A stretch of 56,035 nucleotides of DNA, taken from assembly GCF_002571385.2 (NCBI RefSeq), contig NW_019218554.1, forward strand, positions 5,293 to 61,327, given 5' to 3'. Source of the DNA: Stylophora pistillata (taxonomy: Eukaryota). Made by a program: the position numbers and the translations under genes. The first letter of the stretch is position 1, and the number at the start of each line of letters is the position of its first letter. Below, in pieces: positions 5,745 to 34,246 of the stretch. The notes beneath the pieces are model-generated. The model was not told the origin of the DNA and searched no databases. It saw nothing but the letters and a program-made list of their open reading frames with translations.

Positions 5745-8700
5745 ATGGCGGCTTTCTCAAAGTATTTGTTGATCTCTGTACCTGTGGTGGCCTTGGCGGG
5801 TATTGCAGCATTATGGTGGCAACGGAAAGAGAGAGAAAGGTCTTACACAGAAGTGGGTCGTGTTTCTAGCCTGATCATTTATCCGGTGAAATCTTGCAAA
5901 GGAATTCGCGTAGATAATGCGAAGTGCTTCAAAGAAGGAATGGAATATGATAGGTAAACATGGCCTAGCTTTTGTCCAAAGATAAGACAAAAAGAAAAAA
6001 TAGCCAAAGAAACGGAAACGTTTGAATAAAAATAATCGAAACGAGCATTGAAACAGCTCACAAGGAATAGAGGAGCCCAGAACTAGGTTAGGGTTTGGGT
6101 TGTGTGTGTTAATGTGTTCGCGTGAGTTTGGCACGTCTTTCCAGAAGTTACAAGTATGTGGAATATTTCAAGGAGAAAAAGACCTTATCAGCTTGGTGAC
6201 TATCATGGTTGATCTTTTTTTCGCCTTTTGTTTTTTCTTTTTCTGAATTTAGCGAAAGAAATTAAGGTGCCATACATGCACACCAAGTGATATTTGCATA
6301 TGGTCATTCCGGCCGGGGGGGATCGAAAAAATTGGCGGGTCTTAAACGCAGGTCAAAAATCGTGGCATCTTTCGGGTGTTTGGGACATCCTTCCACAGAG
6401 ACGTAGCTGAAGAAGCAGAGCAATGGTATATGCTCTTACTTAAAAGTTGCATGGGAATCCTACTCCCCACCCCACCCCAAATGGTGCCACTGCACGATAT
6501 CATATTACATATTGTTTTTTTGTGAAGCACCTTTTCTATGATTATAGAAAGTGTTGTTGTTCATCATGGCTTTGTAGATTGAACGAAATGTTTTGTAGTT
6601 TGTCTCATGATATAGAGTTAGGCTATCAAATGGGTTGATATTTTTTCTTGACTACCCATTTACCCTGGTTCCCCTTTTCTTCCCTAGCTCTGAGGACACA
6701 TCCTTATGATCAACGGTGATGGATGTCATTTGACTGTGACTGTCACATACATTGATTTAATATCATTGTTTTTTTTGGCAGGCGTTGGATTCTTGTGGAT
6801 AAGAATGATACTTTTATTTCTCAGCGCGTAGATCCAAAGCTAGCTTTGGTTGTTCCTCATTTTGAGGATGGGAAATATCTCTGCCTTGATGCCCCTGGAA
6901 TGAAAACCTTGAAACTGGACGCAGAGTTATCAGAAGATAAGCAGGAGTTGAAGAGGATACTGTAAGTTATCTGGCATGTCCTTATAGGCCATCTTGTAGC
7001 TTAAGTTGAATGTCATTACAATGGTAAATAATAGGATGGTGATCACAGTTATTAGCACAAATGTTTTTTTGTTCTCAACACCAGTTAACACTAACAGAAA
7101 CCAACCAAGGATTGCACTGTTGATAAATTTATAATTCTGACATTTTGTTTGTTTTTGGACTGAGTATGAAGAAATGTTTTTTTTTTTTTTTTTTTTTTGG
7201 GGGGGGGGGGCGGAAACTGGCATGGAGTAATCAAGAATAACAACTAGAGACTGAGAAAAGGGACATGGTCCAAAAATTGATTGTCTCTCCAGATTTCAGG
7301 TTCCCAGAGGTTGGCAGATAATGAATACTAATTACCCTGTTAGAAGAGCCCCAAATATGGTGTCCTTGTAGGTTGTATAAGAGCCATCCTTTATACTGAG
7401 AGGCATTTCTGTATTTTTTCAGGGTGTACAGGGTTTACGGAGAAGGTCAGTATGTTGGAGATGAAGCTGCGGAATGGTTCTCAAATTATTTGAAGAGACC
7501 TGGATGCAAGCTGTATAAACTCTCATGGCCTAAATTAATCTGTGAGGATAAAAAGTGGGGTGATGTTGCTTTGCCAGGTGACAAGGTAATATTAAAATTA
7601 TGTGATGCGTCTAACCCTTGATTTAAAATCTGGTAGTCTCTAGAGTCGGAATTCTCTAGCTAAAAACCTTTATAGCCTGAAGTAGGCTCTTCATTATTTT
7701 AGCATATTCTTCTTCTATGTTCTGCAGTGGCTAGTGCACTGGAATTGAGTTTGAGAGGTCAATAATAGCCCTGGTACAGTTATTGTGATAATTATGCTCC
7801 TTGCTAAGAACAAGACATGTTACTCTTGTCTATCCATCCAAGGGTGTAAGTAAATATATAATTTTATATCTTATTAACCAAGCGCAGGGGCCGTACTGGG
7901 AGAATATCGGCCTGAGGTCTTGACAGTATGGACCGAGTGCCGATATTCTTCCAGTACGGTCCTGAGCAAGCTTGGTTAATAAGAGATTTTTTATACGACT
8001 GAAGTTCAAAGGGACACAAGTGTGGTATCATTCGGGACCATTCGGGACAGTGCCCGGTCCAATACTGAGAGAATATTGACCGGCAATAGAACATTTTGAT
8101 TGGTTGATTTTAGTTATTGGTTCCCTGACTGCCCGAGTTGTGTAATAAATGGTACTAACAAACTCTTGGGCACACTGGGATGGACTGAATTATAGCACTG
8201 GTTATCCTGTTCATGTGAAGGAAAGGGTAACAATACTCCTTGCCACTTCAAGCTACAGAACTACCAGTCAGAATAAAGTTTATTAGTAAGCTTTGAAGGT
8301 CACAAGGCAATAAGACTTAAGAGCAGAATGTTGTTTTGGTTTGACATATATCCATTATGGAATTATGTCATCCGGAGAGCTCAGTCAGGGTATTGGATCA
8401 GTGTGTGGAAGAAATTAAACTTTTATCCCCTCAATCATTTTTATCTAATTATTTTATGCAAAGATGAAGGAATTTTGGAATGGTGGGAAGTTTGGTGATT
8501 TATTCCAGGCCTTATTTTGTTTTCTCCTCCTTTTTTTTTAACCAAGGCGTCATTTGGAAATTTTTCTCCTTACATGATTACATCTGAACAATCTTTGGTG
8601 GCTTTGAATGGAGAACTTCCATCACCAGTTACTATGGAAAGATTCCGTCCAAATGTTGTTGTTGGTGGTCTGAAGGCATATGATGAGGTCTGTATTCCCA

Positions 8701-9354
8701 CTCATATTTCTTGTAAGGGTAATTAAATAAAATACTAACTAACATATTTGTTTGATTAAGTACTCTTCTGGGTGCTTGTTAAATTTATAGACCTCAAGAG
8801 TGGGTGTGTATTTTAGGTGGGTGCTTATAAAACTTGTGCACACCATTTTCAACAAGCAGGGATTTCATTAAAAGCCAGCAACCGGCGAATTCTGGCAGCT
8901 ACTCTCCACAATGGAGCCGGCTACTATGGCCATTCCACCCCACTGGTTTTTGTGTGTTCTTTGGGAAATGTTCAATATATTGTAAAGGCACTCGTCCATA
9001 AAGGTGTTTTTTTTTTTTATTTTGTCTCCTTTTTGGTTGTTAGGTGATTTTTGTAACAAGTTCTAACAATTCAATCAATAACACGATCGGTTTGCTGTGC
9101 GCCGTGTTGAATGGACAGAAGAGAAAGTCTGGTGAAAAATCTGCCTCGATTACCGTCTTCTACCTACCTATGTCCTAATATACACCTTCTTCCGAAGTTA
9201 CTGAAATCTCTGAACAAGTAGTGACTTTATTTTGCAAAAAAACAATGAATAGTATAATAAAAAGAACTTAAAGATGTACTATGGACAGTGAATTTTGTGA
9301 TTGTAAACAAGAAAAGGAACAATAATCCCCTCGTGCACTTCAGTTACTCTTCTT

Positions 9355-9386: not shown

Positions 9387-11407
9387 GTTTTTAAGGGGGG
9401 CAGAGGGTAGAGAGGGAGAAAAGGTGGGGGTGGTACTTATTTCAGGCTGGGTGCTTCTTAAATTTCCCAACCAATAGGGTGGGCACTTATTCAATGTACA
9501 CGTGCACTTATACAAGGTTGGGTGCTTAATTGAGTGAACATGGTAAATGTATTAAAAAGTAAGCCACGGACAGACTCTCTTTCTTTCCACAGGATAAGTG
9601 GTCAAAAAAGATAATTAAGATAGGGGACGTGGAGTTCAGATTTCTGAAGAACTGTGGAAGGTGAGTTTACAAGTGATGTGTCAAAGAAGTTGTTTCAATC
9701 ATTTAACACCCAAGATCTAATTTTGAATTCTCCCCTCAGGCTGCTACACATTCCATTGTAATTTGTTAGGAGAATTTGGTGCTACAATGATTTAAGGATA
9801 AAAGTTTCTGTCTGATAAGTGTGGGTATTCTCATTACCTGTTTGCTGGATAGTGTATGGATATTATAGGGAGAAGCTACATGTTAATCTCTTAAGGGAGT
9901 TGAGGGTTAATCCATAAACTCCTGGTCAGGAGATTCTGAGAGTTTCAGTCTTATGTAACCCTATATTTCTACAGCTCACTGATTTGGTTTAACTCTGAAA
10001 AAGAAAAAAAAAATATGATTACAGTAAACACACGCATATAAGAACACATGGATTAAGAACATCAGAAATTTTGCAAATAAAGCACCATATTTATAAGAAC
10101 AAAATCAGCCTGGAAATATAAATTGTTCTTATAAAATGGGTAAGACATTAACATGCCCTTCATGTTAGATGTATTTTCTTGTTTTGTTTACTAGTTAACT
10201 AGTAATAAGGCTGATTTTCTTTTGCAGGGTAATTGCTACAATAATGTCACGATATTTATTAATTTTCTTTGCCATTAAATATGCTAATTTAATCTCAAGC
10301 AATTTTTTTGCATTGTTACAGTTCTGAATTAATAATAGTAATAATAATACAGCATTTGTTGTGCGCAAACTCCATGTGGATATGCTCAAATGCGCATGAA
10401 TTTCAACAACAAAATTGAAGAACAATTTAAGAACACCTTCAGGCTGATTTTTCACTAAGCACCCGCTAAATAAGAACCTGATCAACCTGGCCTCCAAAAT
10501 CATGTGTTCTTATAAATTATGCGGGTGTTTACTGTATTTTCCAAGGTGTTCATTGACAACCATAAACCCTGCAACAGGAGAAAAGGAAGGAGATGAACCT
10601 CTGGCTACTCTGCAAAGGTAATATCTTACTTGTTAATACATGTACATGTATTATTTTAATGTTATTCCTCAGTATTTTTGGGACTGCTGTTACACAAGTA
10701 TTATGAATCACTATGGTTAGAAAATGTCAGTGAAAATTTCAGTCACTTAGAAATGTGTTTAATATTGTATTTATAGGTAAGTTTCTTTTAGATGCTTTGG
10801 AAAAATACTTAGTGGTTACAGTTTGGAAAAATGAGTTTTTTTCCTAAGTTGATTTTTGAAATGGCTTGTTTCACCAGCAACCTTGTTCAAAGGGTCTCTC
10901 ATCCTCCTACCCCCTGGAGCAAGAGGGTCTCTCCTCTCTTGCTCCAAGGTCTCTCCTCTCTCGCTCCAGGGAGGGGGAAGATGAGAGACCTGGGAACGAG
11001 GTTGGTTTTACCAGGTCAATTTCATATTGCAAAAAAAAAAAGACCTTTTCAGGTGGAGGTCATCAGCCATGGACTGATCCCATAATAATTAAATATTGAT
11101 GGCAGCTTTCTTAGGTACATCTTAGACTACTACTACTGAGACAGTGTTTCTGATAAAGTTTCTGATAAAGCCACAATCCTTGCAGACAAGTGGCAATTTT
11201 AGCAATTGCAGAAAAGTGTTATGTGTGTGGATCAGAAGAGGGACAACTATCAGTAATTAATGATCTTTGACTTTTCACAGGATAAGGCTCCCTGAGGACA
11301 GAGATCCAAGGCAGGGAAGAGCTCCTCTTTTTGGAGTACAGTTTGCTCTTGATGGAGATAAGATGGGGGTTGTAAAATTGGGAGACCGGGTGATGGTCTC
11401 TACATGA
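5745..11407 (+). CDS. MTARC: Mitochondrial amidoxime-reducing component (mARC, MOSC-domain molybdoenzyme), copy 1 (7 exons, 319 aa)
   Basis: Exons 5745-5953, 6782-6961, 7423-7585, 8547-8687, 9593-9660, 10546-10617, 11281-11407 (960 nt, in frame). N-terminal TM anchor plus basic patch, IYPVKSCKG, YDRRW, RFRPNVVV, Moco-ligating CGRC..TTINP, EPLATL, PLFGV. Confidence 0.95.
7864..8147. mobile_element. MITE-like insertion in mARC copy 1 intron 3
   Basis: Inverted arms ATCTTATTAACCAAGC ... GCTTGGTTAATAAGAGAT with internal GTACTGG/CCAGTAC and AGAATATCGGC/GCCGATATTCT; CpG-rich against CpG-poor flanks. Confidence 0.55.
9702..9910. mobile_element. TTAA-flanked MITE family B (related copies ~17480-17660, ~28550-28750, ~44624-44830)
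   Basis: Shared core TTCTCCCCTC..GCTGCTACACATTCC..GAGAATTTGG..GATAAGT..GTATTCTCAT..CTGTTTGCTGGATA in either orientation; TTAAC...GTTAA ends. Confidence 0.6.
10020..10536. mobile_element. TA-flanked MITE (Tc1/mariner/pogo-like) in mARC copy 1 intron 5
   Basis: TA-CAGTAAACACACGCATATAAGAACACATG ... CATGTGTTCTTATAA..ATGCGGGTGTTTACTG-TA terminal inverted repeats; internal TAAGAAC motifs. Confidence 0.75.
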
Positions 11408-12675: not shown

Positions 12676-15600
12676 ATGGCGCCGATTTCGTACTCAAAAT
12701 GTCTGCTGATGGCCTTACCCGCCGTCGTTTTGGTGAGTTTTGCTGCATTATGGTGGCAGAGTAAGGAGAAAAGACGGCGTTATCAAGAAGTGGGGCGGGT
12801 TTGTAGCCTGATCATTTATCCCGTGAAATCTTGCAAAGGAATTCCTGTGGATGATGTGAAGTGTTTCAAAGAAGGAATGGAGTACGACAGGTTAGACTGG
12901 AGAGATTTTACCATCAACTTGTTTTAAGCATGAGGCAGTAAACGAAAATGCATTGAAATTGCTGGGGAAAGGCTCCTTTTTAGTCTGTATGCATGTAGCT
13001 GCCAGAATCGGAGGGCGATTTGGTAGCCTCATGAACTAGAGCAAATTACTAGCTATACTCCTTACTCCACTACTAAAAGAAGGCGATAAATCGATTCTGA
13101 TAACTTGGTTTTCCCCGACAGTTTTCAGCGTTCAACGATCGAACGCCTCTAAAAAAGTATTTTTGGTAAAGATGAGAGCTAAGTAAATAAAGTCGTGCTA
13201 ATTTAACCCGCCATACCAAAGGTCATTCAAAGAGGGTTAAAGGGGGAGCCTTGCACACGTCTCACGCACATCAAAAAGTAGAAAGAACGCATCACGAAAA
13301 ATCGGACAAACAACTTGAAGGTTTACATATGGCAAAAAAAAAAAAAGAAATTCACTGCTCACAGGGTTCTAGTTTGGTATTTTTACTGGTCATGAAGTAA
13401 AAACACTTAATGCTGTACGTGTGAAAAACCTCTCCCCCCCCCTCGTATTTTCGTATGACTTGTCACAGTTAAGCTTGTGTTGAAGTATGGGTATTACATG
13501 CATCAGATGAAGAGCATGGGTTAAGGCCTGCATAACATAAGATTGAATTATTGTTTTTACCTCACAAAGAGCTTAACAGAGATCCAAAACCACAAAACTA
13601 CCTAAACTATACCTAATTGCTATAAACTGCACAAACTGGCAAAAAAAGGAATTGAAATTGCAAATACACACTGCACTGCATTTCAACTTCCTGATGAATT
13701 AGTAAAGTTTGGAGTTAATGAAAATGATTTGTTAGGGAGCATTAATGTCTCCCCAGAATCCATATTGACATTCAAATGCTTCTGTCAATTTATAAGAAGT
13801 ACACTTTTTCTGCGAGAAAAGAGCGACAGATTCTAGATTCTAGTTTCTCCTAGCATTGTCACTGCTAAATCCAACATCAAGGCCATGAGAATGAAGGAAA
13901 TGATGACTATCAAAGACACTTGTCAAAACAAATTCACTTTTTGAATGTACCATTGGAAATACGTAGAGAACAGTATGACAATATTTATACAGATTCAAGA
14001 GTATGAAAGGTTGAAATATTGAAAACAATTTGAACCACACTGCCCTTAATTTCCATGACTTTGCCTTCTAAAGATAATTGACCAATCTTATTTCATCATC
14101 AGTGTTATAAAGTTGGTTTGTTTCACAAGAGTAAGATTTAGGCAGGCAAAAGCATCAGCTTGTCAGGGAGGGTTTTGGTTTGGGGCCTTAACTTAAGGCT
14201 AGAGGATTCAGATCTGGCGTAAATTTTTACAAATTGACATTATTTTCAACAGGCGTTGGATTCTAGTGGATGCCAATGATACCTTCGTATCCCAGCGTAA
14301 AGATCCAAAGCTAGCCCTGATTGTTCCTCGCTTTGAAGATGGAAAATATCTTTGTCTTGATGCCCCTGGAATGGAAACCTTGAAAATGGACATAGAATTA
14401 CAAGTACCTGCAGATAAACAGGAATACAAGAAGATAAAGTAAAACATGGTTCTTGTGTACAGGGCTTTCATAAGAAAAATGTAGTGGGTTTATGATCTAT
14501 GCAAGCATAGTGTGTTGCCCTGGAACATGCCCTTCAAAGGTGGTCTGGGGGCAAGCTCCCCTAGTGTATATGTTGCAGGTAAAAAAAATTTAACCAAGGT
14601 TGAATTTCAATTCTCTTTGTCTCCAAGCCCTAATTGTGAATAAATAGGGCTCGGAGACAAAGGAAATTGAAATTCAACCTAGGTTAAAATTTTTTTACCT
14701 GAATTTAATTTTTACCTGCAACATGTATATATATACTGGGACCTATTTTCGAAAAGTTTTTTTACTCATATTCTGTCTTTCACCATAATTCACGAAGTAA
14801 CAAGCACAAAATGGTCTGACAGCTGGTGGGTTTCAATTGCCTACAAGTTTTTGATGACAACCCTGTGTGTAATTCAGCTTATGCAAGTATGCAATTTAAT
14901 CAAGGAAAGAATTTGTTTGTATTGTATACAAACCTGTCTACTATTTTTTTTTTTTTTTTTAAGTTTTAGTTTGTTTTAGTAATTTTTTTAAAACTTTGAA
15001 AAGTTACATGGGGTTTTCCATGAGAATTTAGTACATTTTAATTTTAGTGGATTTTGCAGATTCTCCTTAGTTTGGAAAATATATAGTAGAAAAGTGGGTT
15101 TAATATGATTTCATATTTCTTTTTGTGCCCTTATATTTATTCATTTTTTTTTTGTTTTGTTTTAAATTCCAGGGTTTGGAGGATTTATGGAGAAGGTCTC
15201 TATTGTGGCGATGAAGCAGCAGAGTGGATCTCCAATTTTTTAAATAAACCTGGATACAAGATGTATAAACTTTCCAAACCAAGAGTGATTTGTGAAGATG
15301 ACAAGTGGGGTGATGTTGCTCTACCAGATGACAAGGTAAATGTAATAAAACAAAAAGGAGAAGCTGGGTATAGGCCAGGTTAAATTTTGGTTTTACCAAC
15401 TGAGCTGATGATTTAAACTGACCATCATAAAGTGTTTCAAAGCTGACATTTCAAGGGTTAGCCCTGCATCAGAGTGAATCACAGAGGGCAAATGCTATAA
15501 ATGTCAGCTTTGAAACTCTTCATGGTGGTCAGCTTTCATTGTCAACTCCATTTATGAAACAAAAATTACCCCAGTTGATATAAACTCCAACGATACAGCC

Positions 15601-18600
15601 CCACAGTTTCTTTTAATTAGAAATATCCCTGGATTATTCATAAAATTATGTATAGACCGGTATGGTATACTGGTTTGGACTGATGCGATTCTCTCAGAAA
15701 TCCAAAACCATCTAATAGACTTACATTTTGAACAAAGAAGGAAAAAGGCAAGGCCAATAATTGAAATCATTGCAAAACTATGCAACACAAACATTCATTT
15801 TTAGTTCATGTAAGATGTACAGTAGCGTGAAAATACAATATTTAAACTCTACTGAAGAGTCATCATTTAGTGACAGAGGATGTTGCTGGATCATTTATAA
15901 CTAAAAGCAATTTAAGACTTTTTTCTAAACTTTTCTTCCTATATCTCATTTGTTGTTTAATCCAGTCAGCATTTGGAGATTTTGCTCCATACATGATTGC
16001 AACAGAGGCCTCATTAGAAGCGGTGAACGAAGAACTTTCATCTCCCGTGACAATGGAAAGATTCCGTCCTAATGTTGTGGTTGAGGGCATGAGGGCTTTT
16101 GATGAGGTCAGTATATATATGTGACCTCTCACGCGAAAACGTTCTGAATGGTAGCCAATTGAACAGTGAACGGAACGGCAAGCGAACGGGTAACAAACAG
16201 CTAGGCAAGCCGTTCGAAACAGATACTGTGAATGGAGGAACAGCTAATAACAATTTTCGAATGGATTAGGTTGAACGGATGAACGGATGAACGGCTAATG
16301 AAAATAATTTATATCAATCCATTCTACACTGTTGTATTAAAATTGATTAGGCTTCCATTATTATTATCATAGTTTTATCTTCTCTCTCTTTTTTATAGGA
16401 CAAGTGGGCAGCTAAGATAATAAAAGTTGGCGATGTTGAATTTAGATTCCTGAAACGCTGTGGAAGGTAATTAAGTCAGTCATAAAATACATTGAAAAAA
16501 ACAAGTTAGTTTTAGTCAGGGCAGGGGTTTAAATTAAGGCTGGTTATCAACAGTCTCTACTGAGCCTGTATCGTAAGACCTCTTTTGTCATCTGTTTAGC
16601 TTGTGAGGAGGCTTTCTTGTAGGGTTTTGCTTTATGACCCCTTTCGCAGGTTGTTGGGACCGTCGATATATATATATATATATATATATGAGCTTACAAC
16701 AGAGCACTTCAAGACCATGAGTTGTTTATTATATTCTGAGAATAAACTATCACATTCACACGTGCAAAGTTCCCGTATTTATATATGGTGGTAACCCAGG
16801 TAAAAAGTCACCCGGGATCCCGCCATTCCCACCTGGGAATCAAAGATGATCCCACCTGGTATCCCGCCTTAAATGTGGGATCCCATCAATCCCACCCGGG
16901 ATTCTGGGTGGGAATGGTGGGATCCCACCACCTAAGGCAGGATCCTGCCATTCCTGCCTGGGAATCAAAGATGATCCCACCTGGGATCCCGCCTGAAATC
17001 TGGGATCCCACCTGGGATCCCGGGTGGGAATGGCGGGATCCCACTACTCAAGGCGGGATCCTGCCATTCCTGCCTGGGAATCAAAGATTATCCCACCTGG
17101 GATCCCGCCTTAAATGTGGGATCCCATCAATCTCACCCGGTATCCCGGGTGGGAATGGCAGGATCCCGTAACCCAAGGTAGGGATTCTGCCATTCTTGCT
17201 TGGGATTAAAAGATGATCCCACCTGCGATCCCACCTTAAATGCAAGATTTTCACATCCCACCCGGGATCCCAGGTGGGATTGGTGGGATTTAGGCAGGAT
17301 TTTGCCAATCCCATCCAGGATCTACAACGTCATGTAGGAAAGACAAGATGTACTATCAATGGTAACATCTCCATGTAAGTGACACAGGATATGACACAGG
17401 CAAGCCACCTAGTGCACTTTTGGCAGCCACTTATATATGGAAAAAGTTATTGAAACCCTGTCAACTCTTTATTTCTCAGTAGAGATTAACATGTAATTTT
17501 TCCTTATAATATCCATACATTATCCAGCAAACAGGTGATGAGAATACTCAAACTTATCAGTTACAAGCTGTTCTTAATCTAACTGATTCTCGTAACTACA
17601 CTTGCAAGGAAACATGTAGCAGCTAGAGGGGAGAATTAACAATCAGATCTTGTGAGTTAAAGGCTAGGGTTAAGGGAAGAAAATGGATGAATTGGGAGAG
17701 AAACTCTAACCAAGATACAGTGGAACCCCGATATAACGATATGCCAAGGGAGCAGTGGAATTAAGGCTGATAGTTTTGAAAGAAACTGTTTGGGGCTGCG
17801 TCGGTGGGAGTAACAAAATAATTTGGATATATCAACAAAGTTGAAATGGCAAATTGGCCACCATAACAATTACAGAAGCTGATATTTCGAGCATTAGCCC
17901 TTCGCTGGAGCCAAGTGGATTTAGATCACTGTATCGAGTTATCGTTATGCCGAGATGGGGTTCTGTCCCATACATTTTACTGTAACTTTTGCTGGGACAT
18001 AGCATATTTATCGTTGTACTAGGAATATTGTTATATTGAGGATCATTGTATCTGGGTTCCACTGTAGCAATGATATCAGCCAACAAGTAACTCAGCCCAC
18101 ATCTGAAGCCAGACCTAGAATTTCATTGCAGGTCCATTGCAGTATGCCAATCTATACAGGTCTTTTACTTTTATTGTCAGATATGCCCTTTAAGGGCCAT
18201 GTTTTTAGTAGAGGAACCTCTTATAAGCTCACATAAATTATGCTAGCCTAATTTTTCAGGCTTCATTTTTCCAAATTAGCATTTTATTTAATACTTGCTT
18301 TGTAGTAATGGTTGCATATTAAATTCTATAATTATATAATAAATTGCAGTTAGTTTGACTGCTGGCTGAAAAGTTTGTGCAGCTGGATTTTCATCTTTCA
18401 ATTTTAAGTTACTCGCTATTTGTAGTGTCCATTTTCTGAAATTGTTTATATTTAGGTGTCTGTTAACAACAGTGAATCCTGACACAGGCGAAAAAGAAGG
18501 AGATGAACCTTTGGCCACTTTAAGGAGGTAATTGTTTTTATTATTAATTGAATTGGCAGAAGTTCATATTGTCAGATCACTTCGCAAGATTCCAAACCTT

Positions 18601-21427: not shown

Positions 21428-24400
21428 TTAAGACCAAATCATGACACTATCTCCCTGACATATGACCCCCATGCCATCCGTATCTGGAGCGGCATTGATC
21501 CCAAACAGAGGGGATCTGTCATATCGTGGATCCCTATCCTCGGGAAGCCTTATTCTAAAAAAAAATTAAATATGCCACAAGGTTTAGTTGATTTTTAGAA
21601 GCAATGTACTGGTTGGAATATGTAACATGAGGAAGGGTGAAAAACTGTCAGGAATTGTCACCCACATGTGCTCTGTCAATCACCTTTCTTCTTTTATATT
21701 TCTTTGTCCCATGCTCATGACAAGTCGAAAGAACATCTTTCTCTATTTATTTACCGAGTTCAAAACTTACCATCTTTCTTTTTCTATTTACAAAGCATGA
21801 TGCTATCAACATTGCTGATCCAAGCAGTATATGCAGAAGAAGTGTCATATCTGAACTATGTAGTGGGTCTAATGCTCACCATAGGGGCTCAGTAGTAGAG
21901 CATCAGAGTGTGTAATCTGAAAGTCTGAGGTTCATGGGGGACTCAGATTTTTTTCTTTGTCCAATACTTGTAGCAAGATGAAAAACATTTTTCTATTTCT
22001 TTAGCAAGCTCAAAACTTATCATCTTTGTTTTTCTTTTCACCTTTCTTTCTCTAGAAAATCGTGACTTAACATTGAATGGACTAGATTTTAAATTTTATT
22101 TCTACCTTCGCAAAGTTTTCAAAGGCTCTTCTCCTTTTTTCTCTCCAGTTTTTGGATTAACAATTGGCAGACTGCACCTTTTAAAGAAAGACAGTTCTGA
22201 TCAATCAAGATCTGTAAAGTCAATCATTTTTAATTTTGCAGCAAATACATGTTCAATGTACTCGAAATCATTACCTGTTGATCATTACCTTTGAATTTAA
22301 AATATATATATATATATATATGGCACTTACAAAATCTTGAAAAGCTTACCTTGCACAGTGGTTCAGGTACCGAAACACTACATCACCAATTTTGATTTTT
22401 CTTCCCCCTTCCCATTTGTCCTGCGAGTAAATTTCAAAATTTTGAGTTTTGAAAAAAGATGATAGAAAGTTAAATCACAGGTTTACCAACTAGACATTGC
22501 ATTAAAATGTCAGCAAGCAATTATTATAGGAGCCATGTCCAATGATAACTTTTTCTTAGCTTTCACATGGTAGATCAAAATTACAAATTAAGTTATGCTT
22601 TGAAAATTTTGTAGAATTATCACCATCAATAATTTAAAAATTAAGCATTCATGATATTTTTATGATCACAGCCATTTACAAAAAGAATGAAAATTGGCTT
22701 GTTGACAAACTGACCTCCTCAAATGCTTTTAAACCATTGATCACAATGTTAGGCCGGAATCGCTCCATTTCCAAAGGTGATGAAAGTTCTTGATTCAATG
22801 AAGCTAAGCAAGCTTCAGCAAGAATCATGTATGGAGCAAAATCCCCAAATGTTGCCTGTGAATTTTAGGAAAAAAGTAAACTGATCCAGCAGAGATATAT
22901 TGTCAAAATTTACATAGCATAATTATGTTACATTCCACTGAACAGCTAAATGCTCAAAAAAATTTCAAGGAAAAAAAAATACAATTCCAATTTCTTGTTT
23001 GTGTTTCAGAAAATTATACATCAATTAGTCTTGCAGCATTTGAAGGTATAATGGTAACTGGATAACAGATTATTAGACCATTCCAGATCTCAAAAAGATG
23101 GCAGTAACCACAGTTACTGTGGTTTAAATAGCAAAAAAAAAATACTTTCATGTTCCATTAGGGACCAGTTATGATTTATTGCATAAGGGGTGGGCCAGAG
23201 GATTTTGAGGAATCACATGGTTTTTCGAGGGGAATGGAGAAGGGATCAGTCATCAACAGAGTATTTAAAATTGACTGCCAATAAGGGTGGGGAGGGGGAT
23301 CATATTACAGAGCCCTAGGGGATCCAGTATAAATTATTGTGACACTTCCATCAAAATCCTTCAACCCCCCTCAGGCCTCTTACCTGGTCTCCAGCCTCTC
23401 CAATATCACTCCATTCATCGTGTGTCCTTATTATGCGAGTCCTGGATAACTTGTACATCTTATACCCAGGTTTGTTCATGTACTTAGAAAACCACTCAGA
23501 GGCTTCGTCACCTACATACTGGCCCTCTCCCTCCATTCCAAATATCCTGTGCAATTTTTTAAAATATTTTACTGTAATTAAAAGGTTAGTTACAAGTTTT
23601 AGACAAAAGATTGTCATGCAAGTAAATTAGGTAAGATTGCCCATTTTTGAATGGTTCTGAAAATTTTTCTTGCACTTACTTTATTCGTTTGAATTCCTTT
23701 TGATCCACTGGTAGCTGTATTTCCATTTTTAACATTTCCATTCCAGGAGCATTCAGGCAAAGATATCTGCCATCCTCAAAATGAGGAACAACCAGTGCTA
23801 GTTTTGGATCTTTACGCTGTGTTATAAAGTTCCCTTTTGGATCCAGAACAATCCAGTGCCTTAGAAAAATTTAATGTAGATAAATGAAAAAACTTTGATA
23901 AAGAGGCTCTGACTCTTCTTGACCCAACTCCTTCCCCCCCCCCCCAGCCACTTCAAAGATCCCCTGCTACATTACCCATGAAAAATGACAACACTTCAAC
24001 CAAACTACATAGCAACAGTAAGAACGACAGTATGATTAAACAAACACACAGAAGAAAACAGCAGAGACAAGAAATACAAACAACAACAACTGAAAGAACT
24101 ACAAAAAAAAAAAAAAAACAAACAAATTTACGTAATTTACCTCCCCGGCTGTGTCCATGATTTCAAGCGCTAAGTATTGCCCGTCCAGTGTCATGTGATG
24201 TCTATAAGTCATCTCTATTAAATTAAAAACAAAAAACAAAAACAAAAAACACAGGTAAACATTTAGAAAATCTCTTGAGCCTATCTCGCCATTGCCAAAC
24301 ATTGTTCTTCGTGTGACGTTTTTTAAAATTAAAATTAAAATTTTTTTGCAATTAAAATTGCAGTAAATCTCGTATCACNCCTTAAGAAGGCCGAAGGCCG

Positions 24401-27284
24401 AAACATCGCCACATTAAAGCTGGAACAGTTAGAAGTTTGCTTCATGTTTCATCGTTGCCTGACGATTGTTTCGCAAGAGGCATGAAACCCAGAGTTGCAG
24501 TAAAAGTTCAAGTAACCTAGATCTTGAAGTATAATTATATATATAAAAGGAACTGGAAAGATGGAGAGTGAGTATTTACAGGGACCTGTGATGGTTCGAA
24601 ATAGTAATTTGGAGCGTACCTGCCATTTCCATTTTGGCTGTAATATTAGCAGTTGTTGATGTCGTAACATTTGCCGTTAGTTTCACGGGGACAAACCCTG
24701 CTTTGGTAACTAACAGCTCTTGTTGGATTGCACAAACTCCCAGAGTCACAAAGTATCCGCTGATATTTGTTTGTGCAATAATGTTGTAGGGTGTCTCCGC
24801 CAGTGATATGTTTGCTTCTGAGAGCGGTATATCATCCTCTGTCAAGACTCGGCCACTCAACACGTGGTGACTGCATGTGCACGCATCACAAGCGGAATTT
24901 AGTGTTCCAATGGAACAGTTTCTTGAGCAGTCTAATCAAAAAATGAGATATAGATCTAACTATCACAATCATATAACTGTTGGGGGTCTTTACCACTCGC
25001 TTGGCTTTTAACGAGAAGTTCTGAGACTCTAGACTCTTCTCTCTTTTTATTCTTTCCTACTACAACGTTTCGTGTCTCTTCTTCCTCTGCTGCTGCTGCT
25101 ACTTTTCTTCTACTTTTAGCAAGGAGTTCCCACGCATTAAATGCAAAAATCACAGACATGTGTGGGTTAGCTGCTGACCGTGGGAGTTTCCACAATGCAT
25201 TCGTTGTTTTGCAAAGGGGGAAATTGGGTAGCTCGCTCCGAAGCACTTGGCGAGCACCAAGGAACCAGTTAAACGCCAATGATCGAGCTGCACATGAAAA
25301 TCACGCGCACAAACAGGATATTCAGTGTGGGTAAAACTCAAGGTCAGTTTTACCAACTCAAACATGACCACCTATCAAACTAACCATTTCCAACCATAAC
25401 AAGCGATTATCAAGTCTAACAAGGTAACAAGAGAAATCTGTGGACTAAGAATAGTTTAAGTACATACTAGAAACATAAAGTCAAGGCAAAAGAACTACAA
25501 AAAAAAAAAAAACACAAACAGATTTACGTAATTTTTTTCTTCTTTTTATAGAATCTCCCAAAATTTATAGGTGTAACCATGATACGTCACCAACGACGGG
25601 AATCCCTATAACTTTGAGTTTTTGCCTTTCTTTCTTTCTTTCCTAATATCATTTATCAGATCTTAAGCAAGTGGATAACTTGAACGTAATCATACGATGT
25701 TTTACATTTGTTGTAACTTACTTTTATTGCTTAATGGGATAATTCGGAGAAAATGGTTGTGAGAGAAAAAAAAAATTAACGTGACTATGAACCCGTCCTC
25801 CGCCAAGTCGTGGCCGTGAGCTATCTAGTTCATGAAAAATCAAAACTGACTAAAAGCAATCAAGAAATCTTCACAGCCACAGCTTGACCGGGTATTAAAA
25901 GTGGTAACCACATCCAACGTCTTGGTAATGCAATAATGCCGAGGTGTCACGCAAGTACAATCCTTGCCTTTCTTTATTTGGAAGTCACGTTCCATTACCG
26001 GACACCAATTCGTAACATTCTAAAATACCGCTATGGTTTACTTTCTGTTTGTTTTTCTTTTCTTTTTCTTTTCACAGCAAATGGTGGGTTTGAGAGAGAA
26101 AGTTACGTAATAACCGCAATGTTGAAGCGCGACCCTGTGGTGAAATCATTTCAAAACAGACACGGAGTGTAAAAATTGGCACAATGCCAGTATTATAATT
26201 ACTTTTTTCAAAATCGATTTTCTGTACTAAGATATTTTATTTGAACCGCTTTGACATGAATTGACAAGTAAAACGTTGCTACTATAAGCAGCAGCAACAT
26301 TTGAGGTCGAAAGAACCAAGTAGTTTTTTGTGAGATATAACTGACGCATCGCAAATTTCAGGTGACTTTATCTTTGATTTCATCGGTTTACTTTATCGTT
26401 ACACATAAATTTCGAAAAGATTTGCGTTTTAAAATATTTGTCTTCCAAAACTACCATGTGCCATTTTTTTCGATACTTCCATTGTCATCTCCTATATTTA
26501 CTTCTATCTTCCGTGTATCCATTTCTGTACGCATGATTTCCTCCTACGGTTGTTTGATTGCAGGTTGCCTTTCGCTGTAGCCTGAGTGCTGGTGTCAGGC
26601 CTTCGCTCTCTTCCTTTCTCGCTTCTCTCTTACCTTTCCCCCAGAAACACTCCCAGAAACGCCTGATACTCAGGCTACTTTCGGTGTTGTTAGTCATCCG
26701 ATTCGAACAAATCGATCACAGCGGATCACAGCGTAGATTACCCCCGCCGCGAACGTTTAGAAAAAGCAGAGTTAAAAACTCTGGAAAAAACTAGTCGAAC
26801 CCTAGCACGCTGAGGAAGCTCTAATCTACCCATACGATGACTTTTCTTGGGTAAGAGTCATCCAGAGTTTTGGAAGGTCTCTAGCCGGTATTTGTGTCCT
26901 GTGTGCAGTGTGCACGGGTGATCGAATAAGGACGAAGGAAAACTGCCTGACATTATTAATTGTCGGCGCGTTGAATCAAATTAGTCGCACCTCTTTGATA
27001 TTTCCGGAAAATGAATGGAGGAGTCGCAAGGCGTTGAGATCAAATGCCTGAGGTAAAGAGGAAATTAAAATTCACCTGTCATACTCCATCCCTTCCTTGA
27101 AACATTTCACACTGTCCATACGGATACCCTTGCAAGATTTCACCGGGTAGACGAACAGACCAGTAACACTCCCGACTTCCTTAAAAGAGCGCTTTTTCGC
27201 ATGCTGTTTCCACCAAAGCACAGCAATGCCCGCTAAAGTCACAACAGGCAAACCAATCAGCAGATATTTGGATTGTGGAACCAT
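21428..27284 (-). CDS. MTARC: mARC (MOSC-domain molybdoenzyme), copy 3 (7 exons, 320 aa)
   Basis: Exons 27284-27076, 23859-23680, 23546-23384, 22855-22715, 22420-22350, 22177-22106, 21554-21428 (963 nt, in frame); VYPVKSCKG, YDRHW, TQRKDPKL, FGDFAPY, RFRPNIVI, CARCSLPIVNP, SPLFGI. Confidence 0.95.
21645..22030 (+). repeat. Two adjacent copies of a tRNA-related SINE-like repeat
   Basis: TTTCTTTGTCC..TGCTC/TTG..CAAG..GAAA.ACAT.TTTCT..GCTCAAAACTTA.CATCTTT occurs at ~21700-21780 and ~21950-22030; the second has a tRNA-like head (GGCTCAGTAGTAGAGCATC..GAGGTTC). Confidence 0.5.
24141..24214 (-). pseudogene. Orphan exon of a Ras-family GTPase (RERG/RASL11/RASL12-like) inside mARC copy 3 intron 1
   Basis: ag|AG ATG ACT TAT AGA ... 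GAC ACA GCC GGG GAG|gt encodes (E)MTYRHHMTLDGQYLALEIMDTAGE, ending at the G3 box DTAG. No other GTPase exons (P-loop, NKxD) found in the window. Confidence 0.8.
24381..24407 (+). other. Degenerate minimal hammerhead-ribozyme motif (Penelope-like pLTR remnant)
   Basis: CTTAAGA-A-GGCC-GAA-GGCC-GAAA-CATC versus the consensus CTGANGA-stemII-GAAA-CGTC; two mismatches; followed by ATTAAA. Confidence 0.5.
24620..24931 (-). pseudogene. Orphan exon of a cartilage intermediate layer protein (CILP)-like gene inside mARC copy 3 intron 1
   Basis: 312-nt AG/GT-bounded, stop-free phase 1-1 exon: CSRNCSIGTLNSACDACTCSHHVLSGRVLTEDDIPLSEANISLAETPYNIIAQTNISGYFVTLGVCAIQQELLVTKAGFVPVKLT... It matches the CILP pattern C..G..N..CDAC.C....L.G.V....P...A.I.L.....T...G.F...G.C (carboxypeptidase regulatory-like domain). 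Confidence 0.75.
26578..26677. mobile_element. 100-bp mini-MITE
   Basis: TAGCCTGAGT...ACTCAGGCTA inverted termini; similar TAGCCTG...CAGGCTA element at ~38327-38405. Confidence 0.65.
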
Positions 27285-27539: not shown

Positions 27540-30022
27540 GCTTGGAGACCCTGTATTTATCTCCTACTAAATTATCAATTTTTAGAGGGGCAAGGGGTGG
27601 GGGGGGGGGCTGAGTTTGTCAAATGTAAAATATGCCAGGGGGTGGGATGTGGTTGTCAGATGTGAAACAAGGCACAGGGAGTTTCAATGAGACAAGATCA
27701 AGTTTTTCTAACCAACACATCTGATGAGGATAGACAAAGGGAAAGCCCAACAAAGACCATTCCTCAACCAAAATTATTTTGAATTCTTTTCCCTTCAAAA
27801 GAAGAAAATAGCCATACTTTTCATGCACATTCAGTCTGCTTATATGTGAGTTGGGAAAACTGGGTCAAATTGACTCTGGCTCTCCAGTAGTCTTCCCAAA
27901 AATTGTAGAAAACAGAATTCAAAGTCAAGTACCACTCTTTCCAAGTTGTTCTTGCATTGCATTTTGAAATGTTTGACTTATTCAAAGGCTACTATGCAAG
28001 ATTAATGTTATTTAATGAACAATCAAATCATATTTACCACAGATCATTTTGATCAAATTGTCTTTAATGAGAGACAGTAAAATTCTGCTGTTTCATGTAG
28101 ATTCTGTGAAAGGCAAATTGGAACTAGTAGAATATTGTTTCTTTTCAAGGTCAATAAAAATTTGTATTTAACAGGGTACTCCCTCGGTATTTAATCAACT
28201 GCACTTCATTGATCTAGGTTGTTCAAAGCTGAGTTCAGATAATCCAGGGTTAGTTTGAAATCTAATTTCAGATTTGAAGCTTTGAAAAAAAGAATAAGTA
28301 TATAGGAATTCTGTTTACCTAGAAATTGATTAAGGATCTTCTAAATAGATAAAACTATCCTGAAAAGACTTTGGAAGATGGGAGCAAAGAAACCCAGATT
28401 ACAATGTAAGCTTGGATTAGTGTTAATTGGCCTTTAAACAACTGGGCCCAGGAGTATATCTCTTTGAGTGCAATGAAACTATGTTAGAAGGTATAAATGT
28501 ATCAACAAATTTACCATATCTGATCACCAAGTATTATCCATACTATTTTTTGACCCTTAACTTGTCGTCTTCCTTAACTTCTCCCTATAAAACCCAGACA
28601 TTATCCAGCAAACAAGTATTGAGAATACTCAAACTTATTAGCTGGAATTTATCTCGATGTAACGTCAAATTCTCATAACTTATTTACAAGGAACTGTGTT
28701 GTAGCTGGAGGGGAGAATTGAATACCAGATCTAGGGAGTTTAAGGGTTACCCAACAGAGAAATCTACTTGCTCCAGACAGCTGGAGAGTATTTTTCTCAT
28801 GCACAGTTGGTGTGTTGGGGTTAATTAATGGAAGTGGCAAAATTAATTTGGAATGCCTGTGTTCTGATCATTGACATTTCTCTGAAGCAATTGGCCCCAT
28901 ATAAATGGTTAATTCTCAAAAAAGCATTTTCCAAATTTACTTCAGTGTTTAATTGTTAATGACAGGTTCTTACTGTTCATACTGCCTACTAATGTTGGCC
29001 AACACTGCTTAAATCAAATCAATTGGTACACTAGCTATCTGTTTCACCTCCTTCTAAACACAAAACCTGACAAAAGATCAAAACCAAATGTACAACCACC
29101 AAGAATATTAAAGTTTAAAGGGTACTGACACCAAGATAGTAGTTGTAAAAAAGTTCAAGCATTTAGCACACTTTGAAACAGTACTCTTTACTCAAGTTAG
29201 TTGAGTATAATTAGGGGTTTACCAGAAATAACCCCTGAGAAACTGTTCACTTCCAGCCAGCCAATGAGATTTTCAAAATGTCACACAATATCATGACCTT
29301 GCACAGAAGTAAACTTTGAAGTGGCATCAATTGTTAAAATCCTTTTGAAAAATTACTCTATGAGCTTCTTGGCAATAAAGAATCGTCGTAAGTAGAAAAG
29401 TTGCCATGTTGCTAGACCAAAGAGACATAAAATGGAGAAAACACTGAAGTACAAAACTCTGGAATATGTAGATTCTGCAAAGCAACCAGCAAAAAGACCT
29501 TATCAGAACTGATTAAAAGAAAAGTTACCAATGCTCAAATTTGACTAGCATACTAGAGAATGTTCCCAGACAAGAAAGAAACTATAATTCAATTTGTTGT
29601 CTGTTTTCTGTTGAATTTTGAGACAGCCTGGGAACAAAAGTTAGGATGAATGCTCAACACCCTAACATCAGTATGCATATTCTCCAAACTGCTCTCATGT
29701 TTTTCCTAAGAGACTGACAAGGAGAATTTATTTAACAATAAGAGCTTCTTTAGTTGGTAATAATTTCCTCAGGGTTTATGCAAAAGGACTCATTGGCTCC
29801 AAATTTAACCTTAAACCATTTTTTTCCAAAGATTTCAAAATCAGTTTTCCTTACGATCTACATACATTTGTGACATTAAATTTTCAAAACTTTATTGCTT
29901 GAGTTGAGCACATTTCCAGGACTTTTCAGGACCTGTAGTCTTTTCCCAGGACTCTCCAGTCCAGAAATTAGAAATGCATCTGACTTTGTAGAAATAACAC
30001 CCAACTTTATATTGTGTCCATA

Positions 30023-30294: not shown

Positions 30295-30299
30295 TATAT

Positions 30300-30425: not shown

Positions 30426-30440
<15 letters not shown>

Positions 30441-30500
30441 AATTATTGTTTTGTAAGAAGAAACCGGATGTTACAATGTACAGAGATTAAATTATGGTAC

Positions 30501-30554
<54 letters not shown>

Positions 30555-30753
30555 ACATGATCCAGTTTTTGTTGTCACAGGAATTATTTTTACGGTTAAC
30601 CGCATCGAGACCCTGTTTCGGTAAATATAAATAGTTGATTGAAAATTGATAAGTAGCATTCTTCTTTTCTTCTACAGAAGTAACGATAACGTCACGCAAC
30701 TGCAATATTTCTGCCGGACGTGACGAAATCATCCTTATCGACAACATTACAAC

Positions 30754-33700
30754 ATGGGTTCATTTCATTCACGATTGTGGAAGATCACTCTTCCTGTTTC
30801 GCTGCCTTTGCTTGCCTTTGCATATTTTCGTTGGAGGCAAATGCAAATGAGAAAGATCGAGCAATTTAGGCGAGTAGGTTATGTGTCCGGACTGTTCATC
30901 TATCCGGTCAAATCATGCGCGGGAATTGAGCTGGAAAATGCTGTGTGTCTCACAGAAGGCATACAATTTGACAGGTATAATGCATTCATTGGTCATGCCT
31001 ACCGTATTTATTTCGTTTTGTTTTGTTTTTGTAATGTTGACTCTTTCGAGATGAGGATTTTTCAATAGCCACTTGCTCTTTTATAAAAGCGACCGACGAC
31101 GGTCGAAAAAATTACCGCTTCAGGGAAACTGATACCTCCCACGCAAACAAACTCAAAAGATTCTTATTTTAAGAAAAAGTAAACGGAATCCGATGAGATC
31201 AGAAAACCACACAACTCTGCGGCATTCACTTTTAATAATTTCCAATCTCAATCTCAATCGTTCGTAACCGTTGTTATTGATTGATTACTAATTAATATGG
31301 CCTTGTATAGGCTTGGAAAACACAAAGCGACTTATATGGCTCTCTCTCTCTCCTAGGAACTGGGTGGTAGTTGACAGAGATGATAAGTACCTTACTTCAG
31401 TGGACAAACCAGTGTTAGCTCAGGTGGTTCCACATTTTGAAGATGGCAGCCTTTGTCTCAATGCGCCGAGTATGGACACACTGAGAATTCCTATCCAGCC
31501 GGACACTAAGGAGTTTAAAGACCTCAAGTATTGAACTTTAATCATCAATGCACAATATTCTTGTAGAGGTTCATATTTCTTTGATTTGTTTGTGCACTCA
31601 AAATCGCCAGTGTCTCTGAGATTCCAGAAGACTGGAAGACACATGATCGATATCAGCCTTGTACATGCAGACCTTATCCCTGCATGGATTATGATGCTGA
31701 TGATGATGATTGATATTATTGTTAATTTAATTATAATAATAATAATTATTATTATTATTATATTATCATCATTATAGTATGATTCTGAATGCCTTAATTT
31801 ATGGTTTACTTTAGAGTTTCAAGGGTCTCGTCCAAGAGTCGTTATGTTGGAGACAAAGCTTCTTTATGGTTTTCAACCTTGCTGAACAAACCAGGCTGCA
31901 AAATATATCAAATTCACGAACTGCGGGATTCCACAAAAGATACGAAATGGGGAGACCTAGCATCACCAGGAGACAAGGTACACTCAGAACAAATCAATTT
32001 TCATTATTGTGTGATATTACTCACAGAATTCAGGGAGAAATGCTGTACATTTAAGACTTTCCTGGTATTTATGGATTATATAGCCTCATGAAATAAAATT
32101 ATGAAGAACTTTGAGAATATCTATATATCATTCACTTTTTTTATAAAAGCTTGACTTTGTTAGACTTGGTTTCCAGGACCCTTTAACATCACCATTGCGA
32201 TAATAGTTATTAGGTGGGATGGAAAGAGGTTTGCAGGAAAAGGAGGAGGGGGAAGTGGTGAGTTAGATGCAACCTCTTGAATTTGAACTTTAGCAATTGA
32301 ATTGGGGGTCTTTGAGTAACTGAGAACCTCATCCTTCAATCTCGCTCACCCAATTATCCCCAAGGATGCACTATGCGCCTAAGATAACCTTTCTGATGAC
32401 TTGGTAAACATTTCTATTGGTTAACTTCTAAGGTTTTAGTCTCAGCATTGAGGGTTCAGCACAGCAACTTTTTCACCCCAAAACATTTAGCGGTAATTAT
32501 AATTTAAGATTATATCAAATTGATGTTACAACAACTGTGCCACCCACCCCTCCCCTAACTTGTTATCAGTTGAGTGTTGTTGGATTATGCGGGGGGGCAG
32601 GGGTAGGTGTGTAGTTGCTCAGAAAATGACATTGATCCAAATTTAGTTTCCCTCTCTTTAATTTTTAACCGACTGTTCTTTTGTGGTAGATGGGTTATGC
32701 AAGTTTTGCAGCATATCACATGACTACAGAGTCATCACTTGTGGAACTGAATGGAATTTTGAAATCTCCCATCGGCATGAATAGGTTCCGTGCTAATATT
32801 GTCATTGGGGGAACTGAGCCTTTTGCTGAGGTTTGTTACTTGAATTTAAATATTCTGTCTCAGATTTATTGCAGATAAAGCCTGCATACAAGCCAAGTGG
32901 TCCATCGGGCTAGCACATAACTCCAGTTTACATGGCATGAAGCAACTAGGAGTATTTCTACTCCCCACTGGATGGAATGCTAGTCCATCCCAGGGTTATC
33001 CCCCAACATTAAATTCACAGTTACCTACTTAATTCTCCAAGATGAAGAGAGGCACCATGAGAGTAAAGTGTCTTGCTTAAGAACACAACGCAATGTCCTT
33101 GGCCAGGATTTATTATAATTATAGCAACTGTAATACAACAGAGTTACCTGTTCACAGTCTTCTCTGGACTTCATACTTATTTTGTCCACTTGGAGATTTA
33201 CAAAAGATAATTATCGCAGCTTTACATGCATCTCTGTATAAGTTCAATGTTTAGTGGCAGTTATAAATTTGGAGATTAGAAAGCACTTTGAGAGCATCAT
33301 GATGGCTCACTATAAATTATTTATTCATCATTAGGATCATTGGCACCAAAAATTTCTAAAGATAGCAGATGTTAGGTTCAGAACTCTCAAAGACTGTGGA
33401 AGGTAAATATTATTTTGATTAAGTTTTCAAGAAGTGGATCAGGTCATAAATGAAGCACAGTGGCCATGACTTCAGCTTGAGCCCAGAATGACTGATATGG
33501 AGTTCAATGTTCTAAATGGAACCACCGCTATATGCCATCATATTTCCCAGGAACCGTCACAAGTCTCCCTTACATCTACGGTATTTCCTTGAAGAAGCTC
33601 CCATGCTCTTATTAGTACCTTCCCCTGAATTGAAGTGTCTATCCCCTAGAAATAGAGTCAAACAACAGGGCTCGACACTAATGGTAGCCCACTAGCCACA

Positions 33701-34246
33701 GACTAGTAGAAATGCAGTTTTGGTTAGTGGATTTCAATTTCCACTAGTCAGTTTGGCTAGTAAACAGACTGAAATTGTCTTAACATCTAAGATGTCACTA
33801 GCCACTTGGCTAGTAAGTTGAAGAGTTAGTGTCGAGCCCTGAAACAAGTGCCTCTCTCAAATAAGAGCTCTCCCTCCCCCACCCCTTGTCCCTCACTTCC
33901 ACAAAAAGTAGGTAAAAAATTCTGTAAACTTCCCAAGTACAGCTAGACCATTCTCTAGTCATTGATGACCAGTAATTTCTAGGATAATGAAGTTATTGGT
34001 ATGCTCTTGAAGAAAACAGTTGAAAATTGATGAGTGTCCCACTTGATCGAGTGCCCTTCTTCAAACAGGCACCCCTCCTTTTAGGAAAAATTTTAAATAA
34101 GCAGTTGCCTATATGTAAGGAAATACAGTTTTGTACATTACATGTATTAACTTGTTATTTATTTTATTCCAAAGATGTACCCAGATCACCATAGATCCTG
34201 AAACTGGCATAAAGAATGGACTTGAAGCACTCACAACTTTGAGAAG
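30754..34246 (+). CDS. MTARC: mARC (MOSC-domain molybdoenzyme), divergent copy 4; exons 1-6 present, terminal exon not found
   Basis: Exons 30754-30974, 31357-31527, 31815-31977, 32690-32830, 33335-33402, 34175-34246 in frame with the same intron phases as copies 1-3; IYPVKSCAG, FDRNW, RFRANIVI, CGRCTQITIDPETG. Confidence 0.9.
33666..33841. mobile_element. MITE with 16-bp TIRs and an AAACAA direct repeat, nested in an older MITE (~33577-34128)
   Basis: CAGGGCTCGACACTAA...TTAGTGTCGAGCCCTG flanked by AAACAA on both sides; the host element has TACGGTATTTCCTT...AAGGAAATACAGT ends. Confidence 0.8.

Follow-up and report, generated by a model that had tools for sequence, protein, structure and literature searches.

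Four tandem mARC-type genes in the stony coral Stylophora pistillata include two copies lacking a conserved active-site aspartate

The genome of the stony coral Stylophora pistillata contains an array of four genes for mitochondrial amidoxime reducing component (mARC) proteins, a family of membrane-anchored molybdoenzymes. The array lies within the 56,035-nucleotide stretch analysed here (the window; positions 5,293 to 61,327 of the forward strand of contig NW_019218554.1, RefSeq assembly GCF_002571385.2). In two of the copies, g2 and g3, the known active site is complete. The other two have lost a conserved aspartate (Asp), replaced by asparagine (Asn) in g1 and by serine (Ser) in g4, and g4 has also lost a conserved arginine (Arg). 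Based on these residues, we propose that g2 and g3 encode ordinary N-reductases while g1 and g4 may have shifted to other oxygenated substrates, a reading to which we assign a probability of roughly 0.5. The array is an ordinary tandem duplication, already annotated, that holds an apparently undescribed Asp-less mARC variant. Multi-copy mARC sets are already known, and the existing S. pistillata annotation does not mention the loss of Asp and Arg. The literature searched, which did not include most subscription journals, yielded no paper on mARCs of corals or on Asp-less mARC paralogs.

Structure of the mARC gene array

Gene models were assembled exon by exon from the window, after six-frame motif scans:

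5745..11407, + strand: g1, mARC-like gene, 7 exons, 319 aa (exons 5745-5953, 6782-6961, 7423-7585, 8547-8687, 9593-9660, 10546-10617, 11281-11407)
12676..19781, + strand: g2, mARC gene with canonical active-site residues, 7 exons, 323 aa (exons 12676-12890, 14253-14438, 15173-15335, 15966-16106, 16399-16466, 18456-18527, 19655-19781)
27284..21428, - strand: g3, mARC gene with canonical active-site residues, 7 exons, 320 aa (exons 27284-27076, 23859-23680, 23546-23384, 22855-22715, 22420-22350, 22177-22106, 21554-21428)
30754..34246, + strand: g4, divergent mARC-like gene, exons 1-6, 278 aa (exons 30754-30974, 31357-31527, 31815-31977, 32690-32830, 33335-33402, 34175-34246)

Every intron is of the GT-AG type, and in each gene the cumulative phases run 2,2,0,0,2,2 at aligned positions. 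The models confirm a preliminary description, made from the sequence alone, of four paralogs (+,+,-,+) sharing intron positions and phases. The motifs quoted there are likewise all present: FGN/FGD/FGD/YAS, QRVDP/QRKDP/QRKDP/SVDKP, and CGRCSLTT/CGRCLLTT/CARCSLPI/CGRCTQIT (g1/g2/g3/g4). Pairwise protein identity between the copies is 46.8-73.7%, and they are therefore not haplotypes, an artefact that the same description had already considered unlikely.

Existing S. pistillata entries named 'mitochondrial amidoxime reducing component 2-like' are 100% identical to g1 (XP_022807674.1) and g3 (XP_022807683.1), and a third entry of that name, XP_022807684.1 (318 aa), matches g4 at 100% over 278 aa. 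g2 matches a Pocillopora damicornis model at 92.6% over 190 aa. Copies of the array have one-to-one Pocillopora orthologs at 89-96% identity. Two Pfam and two protein searches of the S. pistillata genome returned no further mARC copies (copy counts are lower bounds); the sole other MOSC locus found encodes the molybdenum cofactor (Moco) sulfurase MOCOS, on contig C116.

Active-site residues

The third residue of the FGD motif aligns to the Asp of YSD in the solved human mARC1 chain, 64 residues before Cys273, and is thus Asp209. Cys273 is the molybdenum-ligating cysteine of human mARC1 (PMC10637980). The Asp site also precedes the Phe of FRPN by 28 residues, the same spacing as that between D182 and F210 in the Chlamydomonas homologue crARC. 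The crARC variant D182A is reported to have wild-type Moco content and to have lost reduction with both dithionite and NADH (PMC5372681). g2 and g3 keep this Asp together with the Arg of the QRxDP motif. The replacements in the other two copies are as follows:

8559..8561, + strand: g1 Asn codon AAT replacing the conserved Asp, from residue alignment (the Arg107 equivalent is kept in g1)
32702..32704, + strand: g4 Ser codon AGT replacing the conserved Asp, from residue alignment
31400..31402, + strand: g4 Val codon replacing the conserved Arg of xQRxxP, from motif scan and residue alignment

Both positions are strongly conserved. In a set of 263 homologs of 200-450 aa, the Asp is present in 238 and the Arg of xQRxxP in 235. 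The Asn of g1 is also present in its orthologs from Pocillopora meandrina and P. damicornis (89-90% identical) and in one Oculina copy (G041374). Residues on the Moco side are conserved throughout g1-g4: the Lys and Ser of YPVKS, DR, FRxN, EDxW, CxRC, and a late Arg, the last being read for g4 from XP_022807684.1 and orthologs. Equivalents of crARC F210, R211, N213, C252, and R276 are present in 4/4 copies, as is the Mo-ligating Cys of CxRC.

The preliminary description had pointed to diversified substrate-pocket positions. This holds for the Asp and Arg differences, which hit conserved positions, although the loss of Asp in two copies had not been singled out. It does not hold for the residues after CxRC, which show ordinary family variation. 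Variation is family-wide at the pair of residues following the Cys, at the x of CxRC, and at the K/V-D of QRxDP, the commonest residue occurring in 50-93 of 245 homologs at five positions. We accordingly rejected the third motif set (after CxRC) and the K/V-D of QRxDP as evidence of specificity. The term 'substrate pocket' is itself an overstatement, since mARC1 is described as promiscuous, with no clear substrate-binding site and an open bowl instead (PMC10637980, section 11). Counted over 36 positions, departures from the family consensus number 2 in g1, 2 in g2, 3 in g3, and 5 in g4, within a background range of 0-17. FRAN in g4 was discarded as a special feature because Ala occurs in 46/263 homologs. 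An apparent extra g4 departure at g2 position Arg171 proved to be an alignment artefact; a gapless four-way alignment pairs Arg with Arg. Separately, copy b of Acropora millepora (P0382) keeps Asp and Arg and has six other conserved positions changed, including the late Arg required for Moco binding in crARC, and is thus a further divergent coral copy.

Domains, fold, and membrane anchor

The g1-g4 proteins (318-323 aa) contain only the MOSC_N and MOSC domains, with no N-terminal cysteine-desulfurase domain of the MOCOS type. Both domains score above the Pfam cut-off in g1, g3, and g4, and g2 gives exon-level profile matches. An N-terminal hydrophobic stretch followed by K/R is present at the sequence level in all four proteins, with a best 19-residue hydropathy of 2.0-2.2 in g1-g3 and 1.14 in g4. 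The claim that the Moco-ligating Cys and the membrane anchor are retained is thus borne out in 4/4 copies, the anchor being weaker in g4. The AlphaFold model of g4 (predicted local distance difference test score, 94.8) predicts a helix at residues 6-32, and its best Foldseek match is human mARC1 (E 3e-27, template modelling score 0.81). Alongside the weaker helix, the g4 clade has a distinctive start, MGxxxS, in 4/4 members whose start was examined; we take this to be a myristoylation consensus.

Age, selection, and expression of the divergent copy

Two trees agree, a careful one of 30 proteins (LG+G4; long-branch warning within the outgroup) and a quick one of 65 proteins. g4 falls into a clade with 100/100 support and a stem of 0.41, comprising orthologs from Pocillopora, Desmophyllum, Montipora, and two further corals. 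Asp and Arg are both absent in 5/5 full-length members of this clade that were scored. g1, g2, g3, and other stony-coral copies form a separate clade (100/99), the branching order at the base of the tree being unsettled. Montipora and the Pocilloporidae stand on opposite sides of the Complexa/Robusta split of stony corals. Because the g4 clade spans both, the g4 lineage is older than that split.

Comparison of g4 with its ortholog in a related coral (L032) gives a ratio of nonsynonymous to synonymous rates (dN/dS) of 0.10 over 278 codons, at a dS near saturation. For the paralog pairs, dN/dS is 0.12-0.21 in 5/6, the sixth being saturated. Judged by these ratios, g4 is under purifying selection.

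Adjacent gene numbers indicate a similar array in P. damicornis, P. meandrina, and Oculina, and at least two mARC copies are present in each of Acropora, Montipora, Porites, and Desmophyllum. Several public models from P. damicornis, Porites evermanni, and Nematostella (P0293, P0294, P0327, and P0345) fuse adjacent mARC copies into one protein, so cnidarian mARC copy counts in databases are likely too low.

Two raw RNA-read runs were aligned to window positions 26500-38500; only depth bins were used, since repeats filled the exon-junction tables. In both runs, three repeat-free bins over g4 exons contain reads solely in the expected orientation (0.6-2.6x versus 0 in the other), and an exon-free intron bin has a depth of 0-0.09x. 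The bin over g3 exon 1 has depths of 1.1x and 6.8x in the two runs, in the orientation opposite to g4. Further, Logan-derived proteins 97-99% identical to g1, g3, and g4 cross several exon junctions. g1, g3, and g4 are transcribed. The possibility, raised in the preliminary description, that the copies are unexpressed is excluded for these three genes by reads and/or Logan-derived proteins.

Proposed function of the four copies

In mARC enzymes, electrons pass from NADH via cytochrome b5 reductase and cytochrome b5 to the Cys-ligated molybdenum, and Mo(IV) then removes oxygen from the N-O substrate. By analogy, g2 and g3 are likely ordinary membrane-anchored N-reductases acting on N-hydroxy compounds and fed by cytochrome b5 and its reductase. 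g1, with Asn for Asp, and g4, with Ser for Asp and Val for Arg, retain the Moco-binding residues. Their products are likely Moco-loaded and would be expected, that of g4 above all, to have little or no activity on amidoximes or 6-N-hydroxylaminopurine. The Asp would be needed to bind or protonate N-hydroxy substrates. Replacement of this Asp and of the basic Arg would leave the open Mo site less charged, which may shift it towards neutral oxygen-atom donors such as peroxides, N-oxides, and sulfoxides. The array as a whole may represent a general detoxification or redox expansion of stony corals, predating the Complexa/Robusta split, and not a device for symbiosis. For g4, we judge a shift to other oxygen-atom donors the most likely explanation because the copy is old, selected, and transcribed. 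We rank it ahead of a Moco-holding pseudoenzyme and of unchanged activity with divided expression.

The preliminary description had inferred an expanded N-reductive system with sub-functionalised substrates. Divergence is plausible given an old, selected expansion whose members differ at positions that matter; the loss of Asp in g1 and g4, however, argues against a mere addition of further N-reductases.

Several points weigh against a shift in substrate. The alternative substrate classes are deduced from the residues, and none is singled out by any analysis. The Arg of QRxDP is human Arg107 by count, and its placing at the Mo site, as reported for the 2018 crystal structure, is tentative. The dS between g4 and L032 is 1.58, near saturation. 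In the coral MOCOS domain the Asp and Arg sites are occupied by Asn and Lys, respectively (the exon with the Asn aligns weakly, E 0.023), a pattern just as compatible with a non-catalytic, Moco-holding role. Loss of Asp and Arg together may mark only fast-evolving copies. With relatedness allowed for, 7 independent pairs gave 3.7 changes in the same way, 0.0 opposite, and 3.3 with no difference, and the association is not significant (sign test, median p 0.125). The mutant evidence concerns Asp to Ala in an alga (PMC5372681); Asn or Ser may be tolerated. Finally, mARC is described as promiscuous and without a defined pocket (PMC10637980).

In the non-catalytic alternative, g4 and possibly also g1 would bind Moco without catalysing any reaction, serving as a membrane-tethered cofactor store or hand-over scaffold in the manner of the MOCOS C-terminal domain. 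In its favour, crARC D182A is reported to be fully Moco-binding and inactive (PMC5372681), and coral MOCOS itself has neither of the two residues (Asn and Lys in their place) and has FRAN in common with g4. The strong conservation of g4 demands a function, though not catalysis, and its different N-terminus (a weaker helix and MGxxxS in 4/4) may mean another membrane. On the other hand, g4 keeps the Arg of CxRC and all positions conserved among active enzymes save the Asp, the Arg, and, in this species, one Pro. FRAN is common in the family (Ala in 46/263), and the repeated losses of Asp with different replacements (N, S, A, and Y) look more like tuning than death. We consider an idle g4 unlikely on this balance.

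It is similarly improbable that g1-g4 all keep a broad N-reductive activity of the same kind and were retained for dosage or for expression in particular cell types or compartments, the residue changes being tolerated drift. Human mARC1 and mARC2 have similar rates on most substrates, and the Mo site is described as open and promiscuous (PMC10637980). The departures of g1-g4 from consensus (2, 2, 3, and 5 of 36) also lie within the background of 0-17. Drift of this kind is difficult to reconcile with changes that strike the sole residue whose mutation is shown to abolish N-reduction while sparing Moco binding, and that are fixed across the g4 clade under a dN/dS of 0.10.

Assembly artefacts or decaying pseudogenes are highly improbable, and already refuted for g1, g3, and g4: although the region is locally mis-ordered and most of g4 exon 7 is absent from the assembly, the copies are 47-74% identical with open frames, canonical splice sites, and Pocillopora orthologs at 89-96%, and the Logan-derived g4 protein P0290 crosses the exon 6/7 junction.

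Loss of Asp and Arg beyond corals

Among 260 aligned homologs (7 gapped rows dropped), 231 have both Asp and Arg, 16 have neither, 7 have Asp only, and 6 have Arg only. Arg is also lost in 16/22 Asp-less homologs as against 7/238 of those with Asp, an association with an uncorrected p of 1e-15. Asp-less mARCs occur in Exaiptasia, Sycon, Ptychodera, Lytechinus, Anneissia, Biomphalaria, Patella, Ylistrum, Chamberlinius, and Haemonchus. Such copies arose repeatedly, and the residue in place of Asp differs between them (N, S, A, or Y).

A wider reading, tentative and less likely than not, is that the g4 clade represents a distinct, ancient subtype of stony-coral membrane-anchored molybdoenzyme that has dropped the Asp/Arg pair in favour of new chemistry on, or carriage of, Moco. 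With the same loss repeated in sponges, anemones, molluscs, echinoderms, and hemichordates, it would belong to an unrecognised second functional class of mARC in animals. Human mARC1 is a drug target for liver disease. Natural variants of such a second class could reveal the physiological substrates of the family, described in a recent preprint as still unknown (bioRxiv 10.64898/2026.05.26.727831). As natural paralogs within a single genome, of which two are Asp-replaced and one of these is conserved across both major stony-coral groups, g1-g4 offer a panel for probing the role of the Asp and the range of the mARC site.

Comparison with known mARC and MOSC proteins

The coral proteins have MOSC_N and MOSC domains, a predicted N-terminal membrane helix, the Mo-ligating Cys of CxRC, and, as modelled for g4, the fold in common with human mARC1 and mARC2 (MTARC1/2; PDB 6FW2, 7P41, and 29AJ). 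Mammals have two mARC paralogs (PMC10637980), whereas the four coral copies were duplicated inside stony corals; g1 and g4 lack the equivalent of Asp209, and g4 that of Arg107. Relative to crARC, g2 and g3 have the D182 equivalent, and g1 and g4 are natural variants at that position. The C-terminal MOSC domain of MOCOS/ABA3 has the same Moco-binding MOSC_N and MOSC pair, with Asn/Lys at the Asp/Arg sites in the coral protein. Unlike MOCOS, which is a separate gene on C116, g1-g4 have a membrane anchor, no cysteine-desulfurase domain, and belong to the mARC lineage.

Three mARCs with unknown substrates are reported in Caenorhabditis elegans (MARC-1/2/3; PMC13653925) and another three, also with unknown substrates, in Medicago (PMC6321594). 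Nematostella has its own tandem mARC pair, in which both copies retain Asp and Arg. These sets are multi-copy or tandem as in the coral, but are independent expansions.

Photosymbiosis and nitric oxide

The preliminary description had suggested relevance to nitrogen or nitric oxide (NO) handling in a symbiotic cnidarian, that is, that the array is an adaptation to photosymbiosis in which one or more copies make NO from nitrite or handle symbiont nitrogen. We regard this as very unlikely. S. pistillata is a symbiotic coral, an Asp-less site might favour the nitrite anion, and Exaiptasia also has an Asp-less copy. However, orthologs of both g3 and g4 are present in Desmophyllum pertusum, a coral without photosymbionts (the g4 ortholog is a 123-aa fragment with the Asp site outside it), and Asp-less mARCs occur in Sycon, Ptychodera, Lytechinus, Anneissia, Biomphalaria, Patella, Ylistrum, and Chamberlinius. 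The literature searched, which lacked most subscription journals, yielded no paper connecting mARC with corals. Both human mARCs and the algal crARC are able to convert nitrite to NO (PMC10637980). Section 9 of that review does not support nitrite-dependent NO formation as physiological for human mARC, reports none for Arabidopsis ARC in vivo, and allows it for algae. Together, the Desmophyllum orthologs, the Nematostella pair, the three mARCs of C. elegans, and the review leave the proposed link to symbiosis, nitrogen, or NO unsupported. On present evidence the array says nothing about coral symbiosis.

The last exon of g4 and local assembly order

The g4 model in the window ends with exon 6. 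Its remaining part was located upstream of the g4 start codon:

27540..27570, + strand: terminal part of g4 exon 7, with its final 9 codons and the stop at 27541-27570, directly after an N gap at 27404-27539 and upstream of the g4 ATG

Exon 7 was not found downstream of exon 6 by profile scan, acceptor scan, or genome searches, and a scan of the rest of contig C767 (8 stretches) found no copy of it. XP_022807684.1 ends identically to the tail at 27541-27570, and the Logan-derived protein P0290 spans the exon 6/7 junction. g4 is complete in the animal and fragmented in the assembly, with exon 7 mostly inside the gap. DNA contigs from run X15 extend 767 and 258 bases into this 136-N gap, which is therefore undersized.

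In the related coral sequence L032, g3 and g4 lie head to head with starts ~860 bases apart. In the further related corals represented by L037 and L038, an exon matching window positions 29354-29475 lies 2.3 kb beyond g4 exon 7. Given this gene order, local mis-ordering of the assembly has probably displaced the stretch between 27540 and ~30,000 from its place after g4 exon 6. The mis-ordered region corresponds to window positions 27404-30550 and G000:C767:112543-113499. It contains a strongly transcribed minus-strand terminal exon, from 29475 down to ~28090 (80-166x reads), that also lies upstream of g4; the exon that splices to it lies 78 kb distant on this contig, and the gene presumably resembles TMED10.

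Other features of the window

Intron 1 of g3 contains, on the minus strand at 24135-24898, two orphan gene pieces, one a Ras-like exon and the other CarboxypepD_reg/teneurin-like, that meet at a single N (24379). Both are 100% identical to other loci (contig C166 for one; C3395 and C300 for the other), and they are likely a gap-filling artefact or else a very recent capture. The GenBank model PFX14511.1 fuses them to g3. A dispersed repeat of ~375 bases lies nearby at 24975-25350; other parts of the genome hold at least 35 further copies of it at 80-91%. In intron 5 of g2, a GC-rich imperfect tandem repeat at 16790-17320 gives rise to a spurious 141-aa open frame with no Pfam match.

Outside the array, exons at 1569-3189 (- strand) belong to a gene of the cytidine/dCMP-deaminase family, which we take to be ADAT3-like. 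An Arpin (UPF0552) exon lies at 36859-37173 (- strand). At 52013-52752, a pair of open frames of ~200 aa, one on each strand, overlap, with no Pfam match. The segment at 42178-46207 (- strand) holds a gene of the TNF-receptor family, in which cysteine-rich repeats are combined with a death domain and an exon that is likely transmembrane.

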